Sequence record: PZ583739.1
Direction: 5' to 3' (one strand)
From: a phage
Length of the DNA stretch: 64,000 nt
Translations under genes and position numbers: made by a program
In this document: piece after piece, positions 35,020 through 45,726 of the stretch
How positions within the stretch are numbered: position 1 is the first letter of the stretch
Layout of the letters: each line of letters begins with the position of its first letter
Notes under the pieces: generated by a model
What the model saw: the letters and a program-made list of their open reading frames with translations, nothing else
What the model was told of the DNA's origin: nothing
The model's database searches: none

Positions 35020-35027
35020 TATAAATA
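35020..35027 (+). promoter_or_regulatory. T4-type late promoter (TATAAATA) for gene 34
   Basis: tataaata 31 nt upstream of the gene 34 ATG. Confidence 0.6.
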
Positions 35028-35057: not shown

Positions 35058-38000
35058 ATGGCCGATATTTTAAAACCAGCATTCAGAGCAACATCCGGTC
35101 TCGATGCTGCTGGTGAGAAAGTCATTAATGTCGCAAAAGCTGATTACTCAGTTTTATCAGACGGCGTTAACGTAGGTTTCTTTATAGAAGAAAACACAAT
35201 TCAACAATATGATGCGACGCGCGGATACAAAAAGAACTTTGCGGTTATTAATGATAACCGTATTTGGGTTGCTCAACGTGATATTCCGGCACCAGCTGGA
35301 GCATTTACCCCTCAGTATTGGTTAGCAACTCGTACTGACCCTAAATGGGAAACTGTTGCATCTCCAACTCGTCAGCTTAGCTCCGGGGAATTTATCGCAG
35401 TCGACTCAGCTGCAAGCTTTACCACATTTACATTGCCTCCGAACCCGACTGATGGTGATACCATCGTTATTAAAGATATCGGCGGTAATACCGGTTATAA
35501 TGAAATTAAAGTTCAATCGAGCAATGTGCCTGGTCAAGGTAACCAAAAGATTGTTCGCTTTGGTAATCAGTATCCGGAAATTTTAATTACCAAACCATTC
35601 TCTTATAACATGCTTATCTTTTCAAACCGCTTATGGCAATTTTGGGAAGCTGGCAACGAAGAACGTGGCATCAGAATAGAACCATCGACAGGTCGTTTCC
35701 ATGCACAAGCTGGCGACTTTATTATGCGTCGTTATACAACTGGTGCACCGATTACTTTCATTCTTCCTAAGTATGCAAACCAGGGTGATATTGTCAAATC
35801 TGTTGATATCGATGGCATGGGACCAACGTTCCACCTGATGGTTGAAACCTTTGACACCAGTTCCAGTCTTGGGAAAGCTGGCCAGCATCAAATGGAATTC
35901 CGTACCACAGGTGATGGTTTCTTCGTTTATGATGCTGCCGAAAAACTCTGGCATGTTTGGGACGGTGATTTTAAAACTCGTCTTCGCGTTATTCGCGACA
36001 GCGTTAAACTTTTACCAAACGAAAGTGTCATTGTATTTGGCGAAGATAACTCAACTCCGGCAACGATTAATATCGATTTGCCAACTAATGTTTTGCAAGG
36101 CGATATTGTTAAGATTGCGCTGAACTATCTCCGTAAATCGCAGACTGTTAATATAAGAGCTGCTGTTGGCGATAAGATTGCAACTGACATTAAATTGCTG
36201 CAATTCCCTAAACGTTCCGAGTATCCACCAGATACAACTTGGGTGATGGTTGATTCATTGACCTTTAATGGCAACATCAGTTATACTCCGGTTATTGAAT
36301 TATCATATGCAGAAGATGCAGTGTCTGGAACAAGTTATTGGGTTGTCGCTCAGAACGTCCCGACTGTCGAACGAGTTGACTCATTAAATGATTCCACGCG
36401 TACACGTCTTGGTGTTATTGCTCTGGCAAACCAGACTCAGGCAAACGTTGACCATGAAAATAACCCAGAAAAAGAACTCGCAATTACCCCTCAGACTTTA
36501 GCCAACCGTGTTGCTAAAGAGAACCAACGAGGCATTGCCAGAATCGCAACGACTGCTCAAGTAAATCAGAACAGTGATTTTGCATTTGTTGATGATGTAA
36601 TTATTTCTCCGAAAAAACTCAATGAACGTACGGCAACAGAAACGAGACGCGGGCTCGCAGAACTCGCCACACAGCAAGAAACCGATGCGGGTGTAGATGA
36701 TACCACAATTATAACTCCAAAGAAACTGCAAGCTCGCCAGGGCTCAGAATCGCTATCCGGTATTGTAACTTACGTTTCAACGACTGGTGCAACTCCTGCT
36801 GCTTCGCGTGAATTAAATGGTACAAACGTTTATAATAAAAATACGGTTAATCTGGTTGTTTCTCCGAAAGCTCTTGACCAGTACAAAGCTACTTACACCC
36901 AACAAGGTGCGGTTATTCTTGCGGTTGAAAGTGAAGTAATTGCTGGTACTTCTCAATCTGGATGGGCAAACGCAGTCGTTACTCCAGAAATGTTGCATCG
37001 CAAAACTGCTCTTGATTCCCGTATCGGTTTAATCGAGATTGCAACTCAAGTAGAAACAGATGCAGGAACCGATTATACCAGAGCTGTGACTCCTAAAACG
37101 TTAAATGACCGTAAAGCATCAGAAACGTTAACCGGCATAGCCGAGATTGCTACGCAATCAGAATTTGATACTGGAACTGATGATACTCGTATCTCAACTC
37201 CATTAAAAATTAAAAATAGATTTAATAATACTGCTCGTACTTCTGTTAATGCATTAAGTGGTTTAGTAGAAACAGGGACGCTCTGGGACCATTATAGCCT
37301 GAATATTCTTGAAGCAAATGAGACTCAGCGTGGTACGGCAAGATTAGCAACTCAGGGTGAAGTCAATACCGGCACTGACGATAAAACAATCGTTACCCCG
37401 CTTAAATTGATGTCGAAAAAAGCCACTGAAAATGCCGAAGGTATTGTTCGCATCGCGACAAACGCAGAAGCAACAGCAGGTACATCAAAAGTCTTGGCCA
37501 TCAGTCCGTCAGCGCTGAAATATATTGCACAAACGGAAACAACCTGGGAAGCATCTGAAACCCTACGTGGATTTGTTCGTTTATCTTCTGGTACAGCTAC
37601 TTCGGCCGCAACTACAACGACTGGTGCAGGATTTACATATGCAAATGGCGTGTATACTCCGGACCCAAGTAAACTGGTTAGCTACGCAAAATCTGGATAT
37701 GCAGTTTCACCTTACGAATTAAACCGCGTATTGCAAAACTTCCTACCGATAAATGCGATGGCTGTTAATGCTGAAAAACTGGATAACCTTGATTCGACCC
37801 AGTTTATTCGTCGTGATATTGCTCAGACTGTTGAAGGTGTGTTAACTCTTACCAAACAGACAAATATATCTGCTCCGGTTGTATCGACGAGCACTGCAGT
37901 GTTTACTGATGTAACGGCTGGCACTTCGACGTTCGGAACTGTGAACGTTGTTAACGGAACTAACAAGTGGAAAATCACCGCTCCTTCCACCGGAACGACA

Positions 38001-39014
38001 ATGACTATTGGCGATACGACTAACGTATTGACATTAAACACCGCCTCGGGTAATGCTGCTGTACTGAACAACCTTAGCGCCGGAAATGATGTTCAAGCCA
38101 AAAATAATTACGTTCTAAATGGTCGTACTATCGCAACCACAACGGGTGAAGCTTCTGGTGCAACTCTGGCTCTGGGTGATAACTCGCAGAATTTAGTGCT
38201 TAAAACTCTTGATGCTGGTAATATCATAGCAAATGGTGGCGGTGCATTTAAAGTCCTGACCGAGAAAAACGCTGTTGAGATTGTAGATAGAAACTTTGTT
38301 AACCAAGGCGGTGATACAATGTCTGGTGTGCTCCATGTGAATGCTCCGGTCCGTGTATTCGGTACGAAACCAAGTCTTATCGCACAAGCTCCGACTGCAG
38401 ATACTGTTGGCTTCTGGTCTGTCGATATCAATGATGAACCGACTTATAGTCAGTTCCCTGGTTATTGGACAATGAAGTTAAAACGTCAGGTAAACATTGA
38501 TACAGTTCAAACTAAACCTGCTGGGGTAACTGATGAAGTTTGGAATGCTTCTGGTTGGTTAACTGAAAATGGAACTTTCGCCTCGCCTGTTATTCGTTAT
38601 CGTAATGACGATGGTACACTCGGTGATGAAGTATTAGGTAGCTCTGGCCAAAAACTGCGCGGAACCTGGTTTGACTATTCGGTTCGTGATAAGGAAGTTA
38701 AATACCCTGGTACGTTAACTCAGTTTGGTAATACATTGGATTCATGTTATCAGGATTGGGTGTGTTATCCAACTGGATTGAACGGTGGTACTATTCGTTA
38801 TACTCGTACATGGCAGAAAAATAAATCTGCATGGACGACTTTTGCAATGGTTTACACCGCGGATAACCCTCCGTCTGCAGAGGATGTTGGTGCATTACCG
38901 GCCGACAACACAACAATGGGGAACTTAACCATTCTCGATTGGTTGCGTATCGGTAACGTGCGCATCATCCCAGACCCGACCACTAAATCCGTTAAGTTTG
39001 AATGGGTTGAATAA
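35058..39014 (+). CDS. 34: long tail fibre proximal subunit gp34
   Basis: 1318 aa (T4 gp34 is 1289 aa); repetitive fibre sequence; first gene of the 34-35-36-37-38 operon. Confidence 0.85.
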   Translation: MADILKPAFRATSGLDAAGEKVINVAKADYSVLSDGVNVGFFIEENTIQQYDATRGYKKNFAVINDNRIWVAQRDIPAPAGAFTPQYWLATRTDPKWETVASPTRQLSSGEFIAVDSAASFTTFTLPPNPTDGDTIVIKDIGGNTGYNEIKVQSSNVPGQGNQKIVRFGNQYPEILITKPFSYNMLIFSNRLWQFWEAGNEERGIRIEPSTGRFHAQAGDFIMRRYTTGAPITFILPKYANQGDIVKSVDIDGMGPTFHLMVETFDTSSSLGKAGQHQMEFRTTGDGFFVYDAAEKLWHVWDGDFKTRLRVIRDSVKLLPNESVIVFGEDNSTPATINIDLPTNVLQGDIVKIALNYLRKSQTVNIRAAVGDKIATDIKLLQFPKRSEYPPDTTWVMVDSLTFNGNISYTPVIELSYAEDAVSGTSYWVVAQNVPTVERVDSLNDSTRTRLGVIALANQTQANVDHENNPEKELAITPQTLANRVAKENQRGIARIATTAQVNQNSDFAFVDDVIISPKKLNERTATETRRGLAELATQQETDAGVDDTTIITPKKLQARQGSESLSGIVTYVSTTGATPAASRELNGTNVYNKNTVNLVVSPKALDQYKATYTQQGAVILAVESEVIAGTSQSGWANAVVTPEMLHRKTALDSRIGLIEIATQVETDAGTDYTRAVTPKTLNDRKASETLTGIAEIATQSEFDTGTDDTRISTPLKIKNRFNNTARTSVNALSGLVETGTLWDHYSLNILEANETQRGTARLATQGEVNTGTDDKTIVTPLKLMSKKATENAEGIVRIATNAEATAGTSKVLAISPSALKYIAQTETTWEASETLRGFVRLSSGTATSAATTTTGAGFTYANGVYTPDPSKLVSYAKSGYAVSPYELNRVLQNFLPINAMAVNAEKLDNLDSTQFIRRDIAQTVEGVLTLTKQTNISAPVVSTSTAVFTDVTAGTSTFGTVNVVNGTNKWKITAPSTGTTMTIGDTTNVLTLNTASGNAAVLNNLSAGNDVQAKNNYVLNGRTIATTTGEASGATLALGDNSQNLVLKTLDAGNIIANGGGAFKVLTEKNAVEIVDRNFVNQGGDTMSGVLHVNAPVRVFGTKPSLIAQAPTADTVGFWSVDINDEPTYSQFPGYWTMKLKRQVNIDTVQTKPAGVTDEVWNASGWLTENGTFASPVIRYRNDDGTLGDEVLGSSGQKLRGTWFDYSVRDKEVKYPGTLTQFGNTLDSCYQDWVCYPTGLNGGTIRYTRTWQKNKSAWTTFAMVYTADNPPSAEDVGALPADNTTMGNLTILDWLRIGNVRIIPDPTTKSVKFEWVE

Positions 39015-39022
39015 GAGGTAAT

Positions 39023-40153
39023 ATGGAAAAATTTATGGCAGAGTTTGGACAAGGATACGTCCAAACGCCAGTTATATCAGAAAATAATGCCGTTAAATTT
39101 AAAATGAGTATAGCAGGGAGCTGTACTCTTTCCACGGTGAAATCGTATATCAAATTTCAGGATGAACAAATCGGACCAACTACTTTTGGCAATGGTTTGA
39201 CTCTATTAGAAATTGATACAACTACGAATAAAATTGTTAACACGAAAAACTATTCATTGACCAGCACACATGATGTAATCAGTCAGGCATTAATCACCTT
39301 TGTGGAATCTGTTCCAGCTGGAAGATTGATTGCTTTTATTTCTTCTGGGAAACTAAATGCCTCGCAAACATTAATTGACTGGCTTCGTAAATGTGGCTCA
39401 AGAGCATTCCCCGAGAAATGGCTGATTGATAAAGTTGATACATCGTACTCGGCTTTTTACATAACCGGCCGGAACGTAATTGTTTCGGAGCATGTTAAGT
39501 ATAATGACGGGAAGTTAGTTGAGGATGTTTCGACTCCGCTTGAAGTCGTTTATGATACCTTTAGTGATATAGGAGCAACAGGCTATCCTGTGCGCATAAC
39601 GGAAGACGAGAGCACGTATTCATCAACAGGTGATGGAACATCAACCTCAATTAGAAGGTTCCCCACAGAGGACCTGGTGACTCCTATGAGCACATATAAC
39701 CTTTTACCTTTGGATGTGCTTTACCTGAAGTTTCAGATGTCATTTGACGCTGAACTGAAAGCCGCCGGGACTGTAAGGACTTCGGTTCGATTCTTTAAAA
39801 GTCCTAGCACTTCTCCGATATCAAATACAAACATCGATATTGCAGCAAACGTTCCAGCTGGTGCATGGGTAAGTTTCGAAAGATATGTTGAGATTCCAGC
39901 GGGAGCCGATGGCTTTACAGTAGTAACATCAAGGACTGTAGCTGTGGGAACTGGGTCAATACGTAATATTGTTATTGGTGAGATAACCAGAGGTGACTCG
40001 GCATTCAAACCAGCTGAATTTGGTGTCAACGGCATAAGGATGTCATATGCAAACGATGCAACAAATACAGGCAATACAATTGTAACATTACCAGATGCAC
40101 AAGCTCCGAGAGCCGGCAAGATATACGCAGCCGAACTACGAGAAAAACAATAG
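39023..40153 (+). CDS. 35: long tail fibre hinge connector gp35
   Basis: 376 aa (T4 gp35 is 372 aa); syntenic. Confidence 0.75.
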   Translation: MEKFMAEFGQGYVQTPVISENNAVKFKMSIAGSCTLSTVKSYIKFQDEQIGPTTFGNGLTLLEIDTTTNKIVNTKNYSLTSTHDVISQALITFVESVPAGRLIAFISSGKLNASQTLIDWLRKCGSRAFPEKWLIDKVDTSYSAFYITGRNVIVSEHVKYNDGKLVEDVSTPLEVVYDTFSDIGATGYPVRITEDESTYSSTGDGTSTSIRRFPTEDLVTPMSTYNLLPLDVLYLKFQMSFDAELKAAGTVRTSVRFFKSPSTSPISNTNIDIAANVPAGAWVSFERYVEIPAGADGFTVVTSRTVAVGTGSIRNIVIGEITRGDSAFKPAEFGVNGIRMSYANDATNTGNTIVTLPDAQAPRAGKIYAAELREKQ

Positions 40154-40174
40154 GACTCTTCGGAGTCCTTTTTT
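40153..40174 (+). terminator. rho-independent terminator (partial) after gene 35
   Basis: ggactc-ttcg-gagtcc hairpin followed by TTTTTT. Confidence 0.6.
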
Positions 40175-40177
40175 CGT

Positions 40178-40185
40178 TATAAATA
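40178..40185 (+). promoter_or_regulatory. T4-type late promoter (TATAAATA) for gene 36
   Basis: tataaata 36 nt upstream of the gene 36 ATG. Confidence 0.6.
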
Positions 40186-40220: not shown

Positions 40221-40868
40221 ATGGCAGATTTAAAACTAGGCTCAACAGCCGGAGGTTCGGTCCTCTGGCACCAGGGTAATTTCCCATTAACACCAGTCAG
40301 TAATGACTTATATTTCAAAACTTATAAAATTTATTCCGAATATAACAAGCCACAAGCAGTCGATAACGATTTCGTTTCTAAAGCTCTTGGTGGTAATTAT
40401 AAAGCAAACGTATATTTTGAACAAGGCCTGACATTTAATGATTCAAATGGTTACGGGATTAAGTTGGGGGCGAGAACGGGCGGTGCACCATTTACAGCAT
40501 CTTTCCGTATTAAAGGGCCGTTTGGATTTGAGACTGAAACGGGAACACCATTCGTTATTTTTGACCCTGACACTACGACAGGAGCAAAACGTCTTACTGT
40601 TATGGGTGATACGTTAGCTCGACAGATTTATGATGAAACAGGACGTGTATTTTCTCCAGGGAATACTCCGTCAAAAGCTCAAGTTGGTCTTAGTAATGTA
40701 ACTAACCAGCAACAGGTGGAACTAAATAATAGTACATTGCAAACAATGACAGGTAACTTGTCAGCACCTAATTTCTTCTCTAGGAACCCAGCATCAGACC
40801 CGGCTCACGTGCCCCGTTTTGACCAAATCGTTCTTAAAGACTCCGTACAAGATTTTGGATATTATTAA
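40221..40868 (+). CDS. 36: long tail fibre distal connector gp36
   Basis: 215 aa (T4 gp36 is 221 aa); syntenic. Confidence 0.75.
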   Translation: MADLKLGSTAGGSVLWHQGNFPLTPVSNDLYFKTYKIYSEYNKPQAVDNDFVSKALGGNYKANVYFEQGLTFNDSNGYGIKLGARTGGAPFTASFRIKGPFGFETETGTPFVIFDPDTTTGAKRLTVMGDTLARQIYDETGRVFSPGNTPSKAQVGLSNVTNQQQVELNNSTLQTMTGNLSAPNFFSRNPASDPAHVPRFDQIVLKDSVQDFGYY

Positions 40869-40876
40869 GAGGCATT

Positions 40877-43800
40877 ATGGCTACTTTAAAACAAATACAA
40901 TTTAAAAGAAGTAAGGTTGCCGGCGTTCGCCCGGCGCCAACAGTTCTTGCCGAAGGTGAACTGGCTATCAACTTGAAAGACCGCTTACTTTTTACTAAAG
41001 ATGACACCGGCGCCATCATTGACCTTGGCTTTGCTAAAGGCGGTAATATTGATGGTAACGTTATTCATAACGGTAACTACACCCAAACCGGTGCCTATAC
41101 TATAGCCGGAGCTATTTCACAAACGTCTGGACATTTTACTACTACTGGTAATATAATAGCAACCGGTGATGTCACAGCAAAAGCCCGTTTAATGACAGAT
41201 AATGGTGAAGTTCTTGTACGAGGTACAGGAACCACTCATGTTCGATTCCAGGATTTGGCTGATGCTCGAGAAAGAGGTATAATTTATTCTCAAAACCGTA
41301 CTGGGGATACCAAGCAAATCTTGAACGTTCGTGTTCAGGATTACACTAATTCAACATCTAATATTTTTGCATTCAACGGCGATGGTTTATTTTATGCTCC
41401 GTCTATTTCCAGCGGAACATCGGTGAAATCTCCAGTAATTTATACTAATACCGTTGATACTGGTAATAAATCAGCTCTTGATTATGATATATCTTCATTA
41501 GCAAATAATAATCCTGCAAGTTCAAGCGCAACAGCTATTAACTATCTTAGAATAAGTAGACACGCTGTCGATGGAATTAGGTATCGTGAACTTAATAATG
41601 TAAATGGTATTTCATGGCATTCTATTTCTACAGCCGGAACAGCTAAGTATCTTTGGTCATTTAATGCAGATGGCGATGTCAAAACATCAAATTCTCTTTC
41701 CGTTGGCCTACCTGGGGATAGCTCAGGATACTCAACATTAGGTCCGTCTGCTATCGCACTTGGTGACAATAACACAGGTTTGAAATGGAAACAAGACGGT
41801 CAGTTCCATACAATTAATAATGGAGCTTATACTTTACTTACATCTCCAACTGAAGTTACAAGCCTTAAACAGTTAGTTGCGGGTTATTCAACCAACGGTT
41901 CTGATTTAATTCTTCCTACAACTCAAAACTATCCATTAGTTATTGTTAATACTACTAATGATAAAAACGGCTTCGGCGACGGTCAAACTCTTTTAGGTTA
42001 CCACCAAAGCGGCAAATATCACCATTATTTTCGTGGCAAAGGTGTAACAAACGTTAACACCGATGGTGGGTTGTTGGTTACTCCTGGCAACGTTGAAGTC
42101 CGTGGTGGTTCGGTTAATATTGATGGTCTCAGTAATGCTTCGACAGTGCTTTTTAAAGGAAATACAACAGGAAGTAGTTCAGTTGATAATATAGAGCTCA
42201 AAGTTTGGGGTGACACTTTTAATACAGTAGATGGTTCTCGTAAAAACGTAGTGGAAATATCCGATGCTACTAGCTGGATGCACTATATTCAACGAACTAC
42301 AGCAGGTAAAGTCGAATCCTATTTAAATGGTACCATGAATGTAATTGAAGGATTGTCTGTCAATCAAGATACATCCTTAAAACGCAATCTGTATGTTTCC
42401 AATGAAATTAAAGTTCGCGCGGCGAGTGGTCTTCGTATTTGGAACGATAAGTACGGTGTTATTTTTCGAAATTCAGAAGACCAGCTGCATATTATCCCAA
42501 CCAATGTTAATGCCGGCGAAAGTGGCGGATTAGGTCCATTACGCCCATTAAGTATTATGTTAGACACGGGTCTGGTTAAAATCCCTAACTTAGAAGCAGA
42601 CCAGGTTTCTTTTAAGGGTAGCGGCGTATTAGAATTCCCTAATAGTAGCGGCGCATCTTATGCCAACCAGAACACGACTAAAGCTCCGTTGTATCAAGCA
42701 CTTGATGCTGCGACTCAAGCATTTTATCCTATTACTAAGCAGAAAAATATCGATTCGAATGTAACTGTTACGCAAGGTATGGACCGAGCTACGAGCGAAT
42801 ACCGAATTGTTGCCCAAGGTGATTTGCTTGGCGATGGCGTTACAACCGGATTAAAATACTGGCGCTTTACCAAAGAAGGTAACTTCATGGCCCAGAACCG
42901 CTTATATGCCGGTACAGCTTATATGAATACCGATGGTAATATTGCAGGTTCTATTTGGAAAAAGTATAGCGGTGCTACTAACCTTGACGCAGCGGTGAAT
43001 ACTCGTGTAGGTAAAGGCGGCGATACAATGACAGGTAAATTGGTCATTGATGCTCCAGGCGATCCTTTAGTATTAAAAACAACCGCAGGTAATAGCTCGC
43101 ATATCCGTTCTGATGTAAATGGTACCGGCAACTGGTATGTTGGTAAAGGTGGCGATGATAACGGAATAGCTCTTTACAGTTATGCTACCAACTCGGGTAT
43201 GTACATCACTAATGATGGGGCTTTCAACGTAGAACTTTCTGGTGCTGGCTTAGCAATGCAGATGAATTATTATCGCATGTATGTTAATGGCCGAGCATGG
43301 GTTAATACACAAGGTCATGGTTACGGAAACCAATGGCAAACAGAAGCTCCTTATTTCGTCGACTTTGGTGAATCTGTTCCTAAAGATAGCTATATGCCAA
43401 TTATCAAAGGAAAAAGCACTCTAATTACCGACGGATATTCTACTAAAGCAGACTTTGGTATTATTCGATTAGGTGGAGCTGCTACTTGGGGTTCTGCTGT
43501 TATTCGTGTGGGTTCTGCCGAAAGCGGCGATGCAAGCCATCCTAATGCAATATTTGTATTTCAGGCCAATGGTGATTTTGTTGCACCTGCCGGTTTACGA
43601 GCCAGAGCTAACCTAGGCGTGGGCACAATCCCGGTATGGGGCGGCGCATCCATTGCCATTGGGGACGATGACACCGGCTTAGTCCATGGTGGTGACGGTC
43701 GAATTAATATGTATGCTAACTCGCAACATATTGCAAGCTGGGGAGCCGGTTATCAGATTCATGAAGGTCTTTGGGATACCCATGGGGCTTTGTGGACTGA

Positions 43801-44221
43801 AACAGGAAAAGCTATTATTTCTTATGGGCATTTAGTCCAACAAAGTGATGCCTATTCTACATATGTCCGTGATGTGTATGTCCGTTCTGATATTCGTGTT
43901 AAAAAAGACCTTGTTAAATTTGAAAATGCTTCTCGGAAGCTTTCTAAAATTAACGGCTACACATATATGCAGAAACGTGGAACTGACGAAGAAGGTAATC
44001 AGAAATGGGAACCTAATGCTGGTTTAATTGCTCAAGAAGTTCAAGCTATTTTACCTGAATTGGTTGAAGGCGACCCTGATGGTGAAGCTTTACTTCGTTT
44101 GAACTATAACGGTGTAATTGGTTTAAATACAGCTGCAATCAATGAGCACACTGCAGAAATAGCAGAATTGAAATCAGAGATTGAAGAACTTAAAGCTTTA
44201 GTTAAATCATTGTTAAAATAA
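40877..44221 (+). CDS. 37: long tail fibre distal subunit gp37
   Basis: 1114 aa; Gly/Asn/Thr-rich fibre repeats; C-terminal SDIRVKKDL block suggests an autoproteolytic chaperone domain. Confidence 0.85.
43886..44218 (+). other. putative C-terminal intramolecular chaperone (autoproteolytic, S74-like) domain of gp37
   Basis: Last 111 aa begin with SDIRVKKDL (Ser at 43886) and end in a coiled-coil-like [22 protein letters not shown]; resembles the self-cleaving chaperone domains of endosialidases and T5 pb1. Confidence 0.5.
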
Positions 44222-44226
44222 TAAGA

Positions 44227-44240
44227 GGGGCTTCGGCCCC
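44227..44240 (+). other. GC hairpin with UUCG loop between genes 37 and 38
   Basis: ggggc-ttcg-gcccc with no T-run; overlaps the gene 38 SD region. Confidence 0.4.
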
Positions 44241-44252
44241 TTGGAGGTTTAT

Positions 44253-45035
44253 ATGGCAGTAGTAGGACCGTGGGTAGGGTGGTCTGCGAGGGTACAAACT
44301 GGGGACCCTTGGATGGGCGGCGCTGCCCAACGATTGAGAATGGGTATTCCGTTTTGGATGAGTAATATGGTAGGTCGGTCTGTTGAAATAATTCACACAC
44401 TTGGAGCCGACCATAACTTTAACGGGCAATGGTTTAGAGACCGTTGTTTTGAAGCCGGTGCTGCCCCTATTGTGTTTAATATCACAGGTGATTTAGTATC
44501 TTATACTAAAGATGTTCCGTTGTTCTTTATGTATGGCGATACCCCTAATGAATACGTTACTTTGAATATTCACGGCGGGGTCCATATGTGGGGCCGTGGT
44601 GGTAACGGTGGGACCCGTGTTTGGGTAGCGGGTACAAATGGTGGTGATGTAATTCAAAACGACATTGGTGGCAGACTCCGTATCTGGAACTATGGCGTTA
44701 TAGCTTCAGGGGGCGGCGGCGGTGCCGGATGTGCTTCAAATAACTCTTGGCTTGTGGCGGGTACAGCTGGTGGCGGTGGCGGTAGACCATATGGATTAGG
44801 TGGTACTAATGGCGCCGTAAACCCAGGCGGCAACGCTAGTTATACCGGACCAGGTGGCGGTGGTAGCTTTGGTGGACAGTGGGGTGGTGGTAATGGCGGC
44901 GACGCGGGTGGGGCTGGTGGCGGCGCTTACGGACGAAGCGTTACATACGGCTCACAAGGCGGAGCTGGACGAGCTGTATTCGGAAGTTCTCCTTCATGGG
45001 GCGCTACAGGCACTATCTACGGCTCCTGGCTATAG
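44253..45035 (+). CDS. 38: tail fibre adhesin gp38 (T2/S16-type, polyglycine-rich receptor-binding protein)
   Basis: Track start 44241 is TTG; ATG at 44253 with SD GGAGG gives MAVVGPWVG...; Gly-rich motifs ([24 protein letters not shown]) between variable segments; ends GSWL. Confidence 0.85.
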
Positions 45036-45046
45036 TACATAAGCGC

Positions 45047-45054
45047 TATAAATA
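45047..45054 (+). promoter_or_regulatory. T4-type late promoter (TATAAATA) for holin gene t
   Basis: tataaata 19 nt upstream of the t ATG, with SD AAGGAG between. Confidence 0.6.
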
Positions 45055-45072: not shown

Positions 45073-45726
45073 ATGGAACCAAAAGTAGGAATATCAATAC
45101 CCGACCTACTTTTTGGACTTCTTGATAGAATTTTTAAAGATAATGCGACCGGGAAAGTTGTTTTTTCCCGGGTACTAGTTATTGTTCTATTATTTTTAAT
45201 GGCGGTAATCTGGTATAAAGGTGATGCACTTTTAGATGCGTACAGGGATGCTTCATATGCCTCATACACAGAAATGATAAGGCAAGACCAGGACAACAGA
45301 TTTAAAATTGCAGCTATCGAGCAAATCCAGATAGTCCACTCGTCAAGTGGGGCAGACTTTACAGCAATATATTCTTTTAGACCAACTAACCTTAACTACT
45401 TTGTGGATATGGTGGGATACGAGGGGATATTGCCTGATACAGTCGACGAAAAAAATTTAGGTGGGTTTCCAATAGATAAAACTTCGGCGGAATATTTGGC
45501 GGGGGTTAATGGTAATTATTTTGAATCCAGTACGGAATCTGTATTCTTACCAACAAAGAAAAAAAGCAGCTTCTCATATATGTTCAGCTGCCCATTCTTT
45601 AATTTGGAAAACGTTTATGCAGGTACAGTCTCACTGTACTGGTATAAGCAAAAACCTAACCTTGGTTTTGATAGGCTTTCTGCTATGTGTGGACAAGCAG
45701 GTCGTACGCTTGGGCGTACACGTTAG
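45073..45726 (+). CDS. t: holin T (lysis inhibition-sensitive holin)
   Basis: 217 aa; LLFGLLDRIFKDNATGKV, single transmembrane segment, LPTKK...YMFSCPFFNLENVYAGT blocks match T4 holin T. Confidence 0.9.
   Translation: MEPKVGISIPDLLFGLLDRIFKDNATGKVVFSRVLVIVLLFLMAVIWYKGDALLDAYRDASYASYTEMIRQDQDNRFKIAAIEQIQIVHSSSGADFTAIYSFRPTNLNYFVDMVGYEGILPDTVDEKNLGGFPIDKTSAEYLAGVNGNYFESSTESVFLPTKKKSSFSYMFSCPFFNLENVYAGTVSLYWYKQKPNLGFDRLSAMCGQAGRTLGRTR

Follow-up and report, generated by a model that had tools for sequence, protein, structure and literature searches.

We analysed a stretch of 64,000 nucleotides of phage DNA (sequence record PZ583739.1), hereafter called the window, and concentrated on positions 40877 to 45035, which encode the long-tail-fibre proteins gp37 and gp38. 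An initial annotation had described this region as a host-recognition module of the T2/S16 type, in which gp37 ends in a self-cleaving chaperone domain and gp38 is a polyglycine adhesin. The module belongs to a T-even long-tail-fibre operon that occupies 35-46 kb of the + strand and whose genes were identified by PHROG and Pfam profiles. Over 20-40 kb, the backbone of the window shows 97% DNA identity to Escherichia phages vB_EcoM_RZ (RZ) and DK-13, and 95-96% to MN01, EAWsc9 and Yersinia phage vB_YenM_P8 (P8); the genus Gaprivervirus includes RZ, MN01 and EAWsc9, and we assign the source of the window to a JS98/RZ-like T-even phage. In the gp37-gp38 stretch the best DNA matches fall to 90-94% and become fragmented, which is typical of a hypervariable locus. 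The distal fibre genes are as follows.

40221-40868, + strand: gp36, 215 residues, the distal hinge connector and attachment point of the gp37 N-terminus (PHROG 1425, E=1e-56)
40877-44221, + strand: gp37, the precursor of the long tail fibre distal subunit, 1114 residues and 119.5 kDa (PHROG 1699, E=0, full length)
44253-45035, + strand: gp38 adhesin, 260 residues and 26.2 kDa (PHROG 2056 'tail fiber protein; host specificity', E=3e-102)

The gp36 gene is 93-100% identical at the nucleotide level to those of RZ, MN01, P8 and EAWsc9, and a spacer of 31 nucleotides separates the gp37 stop codon (44221) from the gp38 ATG (44253). The same order, with gp38 directly 3' of a gp37 that carries a cleavable-type C-terminal domain, is found in all 11 relatives in which the two genes were read (P8, UP19, JS98, MN01, IME281, RB51, EAWsc9, PhAPEC2, T6, T2 and LHE83) and also in IME341; the RZ gp38 gene spans the end of its record and was compared only in part. 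A scan of gp37 and gp38 with NCBIfam, a library aimed at bacterial and archaeal genes, gave zero family matches.

The features recognised at the distal end of gp37 are listed here.

43637-43885, + strand: beta-helical tip, residues 921-1003, which aligns with S16 gp37 in the gp37(3)-gp38 complex 6F45_A and would form the mature C-terminal end and the gp38 docking surface
43886-44218, + strand: Peptidase_S74 C-terminal intramolecular chaperone domain, residues 1004-1114, 12.3 kDa (PF13884, E=1.5e-12)
43886-43888, + strand: predicted nucleophile Ser1004, equated with endoNF S911 and MyRF S587
43901-43903, + strand: predicted general base Lys1009, equated with endoNF K916 and MyRF K592
44138-44218, + strand: heptad helix, residues 1088-1114, recognised by its a/d pattern

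The initial annotation had placed a chaperone domain of about 110 residues, starting with SDIRVKKDL, at the end of gp37. This motif indeed begins at residue 1004 (nucleotide 43886) and leaves 111 of the 1114 residues for the domain. The PF13884 profile, described as 'chaperone of endosialidase', matched residues 1004-1063 on positions 1-57 of its 58, with 48 bits compared to a gathering cut-off of 22. When the 118 C-terminal residues (997-1114) were used as a query, S16 gp37 was retrieved with an E value of 2e-33 and, more weakly, the MyRF ICA domain (7DC3, E=0.028) and a phage tail fibre (8JOV, E=0.03); the motif S-D-x-R-x-K was in register in all three alignments (SDRRIK in S16, (S)DLRAK in MyRF and SDERLK in 8JOV). 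The profile and these alignments bear out the assignment to the S74 type. In the form SD.[RK].K, the motif is found in gp37 of T2, T6, JS98, LHE83, IME341 and S16, at a distance of 99-113 residues from the C-terminus. Ser1004 and Lys1009 (SDIRVK) have the +5 spacing of S911/K916 in endoNF and S587/K592 in MyRF. The catalytic pair Ser911/Lys916 of endoNF is equivalent to Ser587/Lys592 of MyRF, and mutation of either residue abolishes cleavage (PMC8326128). By analogy, autocleavage of gp37 is predicted to give products of 107.1 kDa (residues 1-1003) and 12.3 kDa.

The coiled-coil-like end proposed for gp37 was also recovered, as clean a/d heptads running from I1095 to L1112 (I1095, L1098, I1102, L1105, V1109 and L1112, a 3-4-3-4-3 spacing) within the last 27 residues or so. 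This final helix appears to fit the trimeric coiled coil that drives MyRF trimerisation (PMC8326128). The S74 domain stands at the extreme C-terminus, after residues 921-1003, whose aligned counterpart in S16 gp37 is a trimeric beta-helix and which are presumably trimeric as well. Residues 921-1114 together aligned with Salmonella phage S16 gp37 (PDB 6F45_A) with an E value of 1.2e-43, and 6F45_A was the sole match of full-length gp37 among PDB sequences at E<=0.001. Among the seven relatives that share this tip type, the S74 domain (residues 1001-1114) is 93-100% conserved per 50-residue bin. The C-terminus of gp37 in T2 and T6 has been reported to be proteolytically removed, after which gp38 caps the fibre (PMC3157838).

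For gp38, the ribosome-binding site, the domains and the predicted receptor loops are given below; loops A to E were mapped from the loops of PP01 gp38 (PMC12892980) by means of the alignment with 9V85.

44243-44247, + strand: ribosome-binding site GGAGG, 5 nucleotides upstream of the ATG at 44253
44253-44372, + strand: N-terminal attachment domain, residues 1-40, with Trp7, Trp20 and Trp35 (PF21721 Gp38_N, E=8.7e-20, 70.9 bits for a cut-off of 25)
44385-45032, + strand: beta-helix body and polyglycine (PGII) sandwich receptor-binding domain, residues 45-260 (PF05268 GP38, E=1.4e-79, 267.4 bits for a cut-off of 25, profile positions 1-218 of 218)
44610-44627, + strand: predicted receptor loop A, residues 120-125, GTRVWV (from PP01 loop A, W119-I124)
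44736-44765, + strand: predicted receptor loop B, residues 162-171, containing Val168 (from PP01 loop B, Q161-V170)
44805-44822, + strand: predicted receptor loop C, residues 185-190, TNGAVN (from PP01 loop C, N184-W189)
44865-44882, + strand: predicted receptor loop D, residues 205-210, SFGGQW (from PP01 loop D, N204-Y209)
44928-44951, + strand: predicted receptor loop E, residues 226-233, YGRSVTYG (from PP01 loop E, N225-S231)

The gp38 protein has 260 residues, from the ATG at 44253 (MAVVGPWVG) to GSWL, followed by the stop codon at 45033-45035; its coordinates in the initial annotation were exact. A mechanically produced list of open reading frames started gp38 at the TTG at 44241. We rejected this codon and took the ATG at 44253 as the true start, because the TTG lies inside the GGAGG ribosome-binding site region and all annotated homologues begin with MAV.G. 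Glycine makes up 26.5% of the protein and 39% of residues 113-245, and the G+C content rises to 0.55 at 44500-44999 (0.36-0.45 around) because of the glycine codons of gp38.

The initial annotation had also presented gp38 as an adhesin of the T2/S16 type, unlike that of T4, and the PF21721 and PF05268 matches agree with this. They are joined by matches to two solved adhesins: residues 1-260 align collinearly with residues 1-249 of S16 gp38 (6F45_D, E=3.6e-47), and residues 37-258 with the receptor-binding domain of PP01 gp38 (9V85, E=2.1e-74). The profile searches that it had proposed, of gp37 residues 1004-1114 for S74 and of gp38 for T2/S16 gp38, were thus both positive and above their cut-offs. 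The gp37/gp38 pattern is not due to chance, since curated profiles score far above threshold and solved structures match at E values of 1e-43 to 2e-74. The N-terminus is of the MAV.GPWVG type found in S16, P8, IME281 and RB51, and Trp7, Trp20 and Trp35 align with W7, W20 and W36 of S16. In S16, one gp38 monomer sits on the gp37 trimer, and its three N-terminal helices each end in a tryptophan that enters one of three gp37 pockets; a beta-helix is followed by a three-layer sandwich of ten polyglycine-II helices, whose five distal hypervariable loops are the proposed binding site (PMC6851490). We infer from the alignments that gp38 would adopt the fold of the solved adhesins, with attachment domain, beta-helix and PGII sandwich.

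An alignment of 12 gp38 sequences supported the description of gp38 as glycine-rich motifs separated by variable segments. The motifs GRGG, GGGGG, GGGGGRP.G and GNGG[DEN].G show little or no variation, the C-terminal end IYGSWL is conserved, and differences concentrate in the loops, which are 13-65% identical to those of receptor-typed relatives.

This gp38 has close relatives that are already deposited. The whole protein is 99.2% identical to gp38 of P8, 97% to that of MN01, 96% to those of TH44 and EAWsc9 and 90% to that of JS98; its cluster at 90% identity has 16 members, and the exact protein is present in public metagenome assemblies (ENA ERZ27235409/411/529/530 and Logan SRR7532915). The receptor-binding region (residues 113-260) is 97-99% identical in P8, EAWsc9, MN01 and JS98 and 91% in PhAPEC2, while tblastn with residues 110-260 gave 98.0% for TH44 and 97.4% for TH40; the corresponding part of RZ gp38 is probably similar. 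Carriers of this JS98-type domain are spread over three genera, namely Gaprivervirus, Dhakavirus and Mosigvirus, and infect E. coli and Yersinia. Public records label members of this family inconsistently or wrongly, as 'distal long tail fiber assembly catalyst' in JS98, IME281 and PhAPEC2, 'tail protein and peptidase' in P8, and 'hypothetical protein' in MN01 and EAWsc9.

Only two differences separate gp38 from its P8 counterpart. Residue 4 is Val here, in JS98 and in PhAPEC2, and Glu in P8 and MN01. Residue 168, located in loop B, is Val here (GTG, nucleotides 44754-44756); the codon is a Glu codon (GAA/GAG) in P8, MN01 and EAWsc9, the JS98 protein aligns with Glu, and PhAPEC2 has Ala. JS98 and PhAPEC2 carry the same receptor-binding domain on another attachment type, MAVVGIPGWIG (52% identity), together with a different, shorter gp37 tip. 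We take this combination, read from the alignments, as direct evidence of a modular joint between the attachment and specificity domains. Such a joint is the natural counterpart of the one used to engineer chimeric gp38.

The shaft of gp37 showed a different kind of variation, and its features are the following.

42233-42556, + strand: trimerisation-type shaft domain, residues 453-560 (Pfam Gp34_trimer PF21446, E=8.7e-7, 29.9 bits for a cut-off of 27)
42977-43726, + strand: distal-shaft mosaic cassette, residues 701-950, delimited by protein identities in 50-residue bins and DNA identities in 150-nucleotide bins
43061-43222, + strand: Pfam gp37_trimer match inside the cassette, residues 729-782 (PF20744, E=3.5e-5)

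The closest protein to gp37 is that of UP19, a Dhakavirus (92.1%), and identity to P8 gp37 is 78.6%; the exact sequence was not found in a collection of 15 billion proteins. As seen from the binned identities, residues 1-700 resemble RZ, MN01, P8 and UP19. Residues 701-950 are 84-98% identical to UP19 and 78-98% to EAWsc9, and only about 36-58% to RZ, MN01 and P8, which match gp37 outside this cassette. The tip (residues 951-1000) is 70-88% conserved among relatives with the same gp38 N-terminal type, and phages that differ in tip type differ correspondingly in the N-terminal type of gp38. In the metagenome contigs, the gp37 that stands beside the identical gp38 is another allele, with 81.7% amino acid identity to that of the window. 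We regard gp37 as a new recombinant (mosaic) allele of a known protein, because its exact sequence was not found, its binned identities fall into zones and a different gp37 accompanies an identical gp38. The same gp38 adhesin thus circulates on different fibres in the metagenome contigs.

We then looked at the receptor that the JS98-type loops might recognise, by comparing residues 113-260 with gp38s whose receptors are assigned. According to the classical literature T2 uses FadL/OmpF and T6 uses Tsx, and the region is 49% and 46% identical to these two, respectively. Identity is 72% to IME281 (OmpF; PMC6499177), 69% to RB51 (OmpF), 54% to LHE83 (OmpA; PMC10987938), 50% to IME341 (FadL; PMC6499177) and 46% to S16 (OmpC). 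The closest receptor-typed relatives are therefore OmpF binders, yet every loop differs, and gp38s with the same receptor can diverge far in sequence (PMC12032242). For P8, an OmpF receptor was merely speculated in the paper on that phage. Work on other phages bears on the role of the loops: PP01 gp38 uses loops D and E to bind OmpC of E. coli O157 (PMC12892980), swaps of the distal half of gp38 suffice to switch the porin receptor (bioRxiv 10.64898/2026.04.02.716166), and an anti-gp38 serum blocks adsorption of LHE83 (PMC10987938).

Because the JS98-type loops differ from those of every receptor-typed gp38 compared, they may recognise an outer-membrane receptor beyond Tsx, OmpA, OmpF, OmpC, FadL and OmpW, which are those attributed to gp38 adhesins in the sources consulted, and the Glu168-to-Val change could also represent a natural mutation that alters host range or switches the receptor; we put this forward tentatively and think it rather improbable. 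Such a change in loop B could parallel the single Q206L substitution of RB68, which retargets that phage from OmpF to OmpW.

The neighbouring genes and the candidate expression signals around the module are listed here.

35058-39014, + strand: gp34, 1318 residues
39023-40153, + strand: gp35 (fibre hinge protein), 376 residues
40152-40176, + strand: terminator-like hairpin AGGACTC-TTCG-GAGTCCT with a T-run, directly after the gp35 stop codon (consensus scan)
40178-40185, + strand: T4-type late promoter motif TATAAATA, 36 nucleotides upstream of gp36 and 2 nucleotides past the T-run of the gp35 hairpin
44225-44242, + strand: intercistronic hairpin GAGGGGC-UUCG-GCCCCUU, between the gp37 stop codon and the gp38 ribosome-binding site
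45047-45054, + strand: late promoter motif TATAAATA of holin t, at the downstream edge of the module
45073-45726, + strand: holin t, 217 residues (PF11031, E=2.2e-66)

The motif TATAAATA, the well-known late promoter of T4, was searched for exactly on the + strand between 34 and 46 kb, and three occurrences only were found, at 35020 (before gp34), 40178 (before gp36) and 45047 (before t). Since late promoter motifs stand only at these positions and a terminator-like hairpin follows gp35, gp36, gp37 and gp38 most likely form a single late transcript that starts at the 40178 promoter. The hairpin at 40152-40176 probably ends the gp34-gp35 late transcript. The fibre genes hence appear to be divided into two late units, gp34-35 and gp36-37-38.

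The hairpin at 44225-44242 has a folding energy of -16.2 kcal/mol (z=-2.2, fold of a 53-nucleotide context), and its position between gp37 and gp38 is kept in JS98 (GGGCC-CUCG-GGCCC), PhAPEC2, T2 and T6, with compensatory changes in the stem. We rejected it as a gp37 terminator: it was flagged on the minus strand only, where the T-run lies, and on the + strand it has no U-run and continues directly into the ribosome-binding site of gp38. The hairpin might stabilise the mRNA or adjust how strongly gp38 is translated relative to gp37.

In gp35, residues 57-128 matched the Pfam family PF15711 ILEI (interleukin-like EMT inducer domain) with 29.1 bits for a cut-off of 27, and the EAWsc9 homologue of gp35 is annotated as 'ILEI domain-containing protein'. 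A fold with a eukaryotic name was not expected in the knee of the fibre.

Taken together, these results make it very probable that the module is the distal end of a long-tail-fibre operon built on the T2/S16 plan, with self-cleavage of gp37 and a gp38 adhesin cap. Gene order, domain content, homology to solved structures, conserved catalytic and anchoring residues and the location of variability were all computed directly, and no sequence feature contradicting this plan was encountered. The proposed sequence of events is the following. After co-transcription of gp36, gp37 and gp38 from the late promoter at 40178, three gp37 chains would be aligned by their C-terminal S74 domains (residues 1004-1114), the heptad helices forming a trimeric coiled coil. 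[quoted passage not shown] The exposed trimeric tip (residues ~921-1003) would then be capped by one gp38 (26.2 kDa), whose N-terminal three-helix domain would insert Trp7, Trp20 and Trp35 into three equivalent pockets. The C-terminal part of gp38 would be a beta-helix bearing the polyglycine-II sandwich, from which loops A to E would project distally and bind a host outer-membrane protein. Host specificity would be set mainly by these loops, here of the JS98 type.

Several points weigh against this interpretation. The cleavage of gp37, the 3:1 stoichiometry, the incorporation of gp38 into virions and its binding to a receptor are steps that we infer by analogy with related fibres, such as those of T2/T6 (PMC3157838) and S16 (PMC6851490), and the folds given to gp37 and gp38 are predicted from sequence identity to solved structures. 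With loops 13-65% identical to those of the OmpF-, OmpA-, FadL-, Tsx- and OmpC-typed gp38s, a receptor class could not be assigned by loop similarity. A receptor for the JS98-type gp38 was not found in the literature on gp38 of JS98, PhAPEC2, P8, Dhakavirus and Gaprivervirus or in the supplements of a 255-phage receptor screen. Finally, because the gp37 cassette at residues 701-950 varies too, part of the host range could lie outside gp38.

This last point leads to an explanation that would add to the T2/S16 plan: gp38 would be the tip adhesin, and a sizeable share of the host range would come from the gp37 cassette (for example through lateral contacts with lipopolysaccharide (LPS) or O-antigen) and from the short tail fibres. 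The strong divergence of the cassette from RZ, MN01 and P8, at about 36-58%, with 84-98% and 78-98% identity to UP19 and EAWsc9, respectively, goes in this direction, as do the 81.7% identical gp37 beside an identical gp38 in metagenome contigs and the need of many T-even phages for LPS besides a porin (PMC3157838; bioRxiv 10.64898/2026.04.02.716166). However, the only Pfam match in the cassette is of a trimerisation type, and a binding domain was not recognised in it; mosaicism of the shaft may be neutral recombination, and published swaps of gp38 alone switch the porin receptor (bioRxiv 10.64898/2026.04.02.716166). We thus consider such a large contribution unlikely.

The T4-type plan, in which the gp37 C-terminus is the adhesin and gp38 an assembly chaperone absent from the virion, could be suggested by the label 'distal long tail fiber assembly catalyst' attached to several relatives, but this label was carried over from T4 and is not evidence. 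We rejected this reading as extremely improbable: gp37 does not match the solved T4 gp37 tip, 6F45_A being its only PDB match at E<=0.001, and ends instead in an S74 domain, while gp38 is covered throughout by adhesin families and by the solved S16 and PP01 adhesins and T4 gp38 is very different in sequence (PMC6851490). It could also be imagined that the S74-like domain has degenerated into a remnant that no longer cleaves, so that gp37 stays at full length and the domain is a trimerisation tag or remains on the fibre. The Pfam profile does span only the first 60 of the 111 domain residues, and cleavage here is predicted from homologues. Against this, Ser1004 and Lys1009, SD-x-R-x-K as a whole and the helix of the coiled coil are all intact, and the domain keeps its 93-100% conservation in the seven same-tip relatives downstream of a mosaic shaft. 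Moreover, an attached domain would leave the gp38 docking surface covered, and gp37 of T2 and T6 is reported to be cleaved (PMC3157838). A non-cleaving remnant is accordingly very unlikely in our view.

With the T2/S16 plan retained, the fibre tip is a known, structurally characterised type, and its discovery value is small: it represents the standard, solved host-recognition mode of most T-even phages, and the gp38 sequence is already public. What is modestly new is the mosaic gp37 allele, Val168 in loop B, and JS98-type loops with no published receptor. The analysis has annotation value, as it corrects mislabelled relatives, and the residue-level map of the cleavage dyad, the anchoring tryptophans and loops A to E shows where specificity can be engineered or swapped. 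Some of the E. coli and Yersinia phages under consideration for therapy or biocontrol carry JS98-type loops.

Finally, the module was compared with known systems. The T2/S16-type tip is the commoner arrangement among T-even phages (PMC6851490), and gene order is the same in the S16 gp37-gp38 pair (PDB 6F45; Dunne et al. 2018, in PMC6851490). The gp37 tip and S74 domain align with those of S16 at E=1e-43 and share SD-x-R-x-K, and the two gp38 proteins are collinear over 260 residues; both have an N-terminus of the MAV.GPWVG type, three anchoring tryptophans, a beta-helix and glycine motifs. The two gp38s differ in that they share only about 46-51% amino acid identity, and 13-29% in all five distal loops; S16 binds Salmonella OmpC, whereas no receptor is assigned to the JS98-type gp38. 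Within the JS98-type gp38s (JS98, P8, MN01, EAWsc9, TH40, TH44 and PhAPEC2), which form a single 90% cluster, the receptor-binding region is 91-99% identical to that of the window; JS98 and PhAPEC2 depart from the window by the other N-terminal attachment domain (52%), paired with the other gp37 tip. T2 and T6 resemble the window by a gp37 C-terminal SD-x-R-x-K domain of 99-113 residues and by the glycine-rich motif/hypervariable segment (GRM/HVS) organisation of gp38, but their gp38 N-terminus is of the MA.VG.PGWIG type, with 43-52% identity, and their receptor-binding regions are 46-49% identical to that of the window. PP01 gp38 (9V85) is the best-scoring solved relative, with a nearly identical beta-helix and the same polyglycine scaffold, and its loop sequences differ from those of the window gp38. 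At a greater distance, endoNF, the T5 L-shaped fibre pb1 and MyRF (PMC8326128) share PF13884, the Ser-Lys dyad with +5 spacing and the C-terminal trimerising helix, and likewise carry the S74 domain at the C-terminus of a triple-beta-helix protein, although sequence similarity is distant outside the motif (E=0.03 to MyRF). Unlike in endoNF, cleavage of gp37 would also expose the surface on which a separate adhesin docks.

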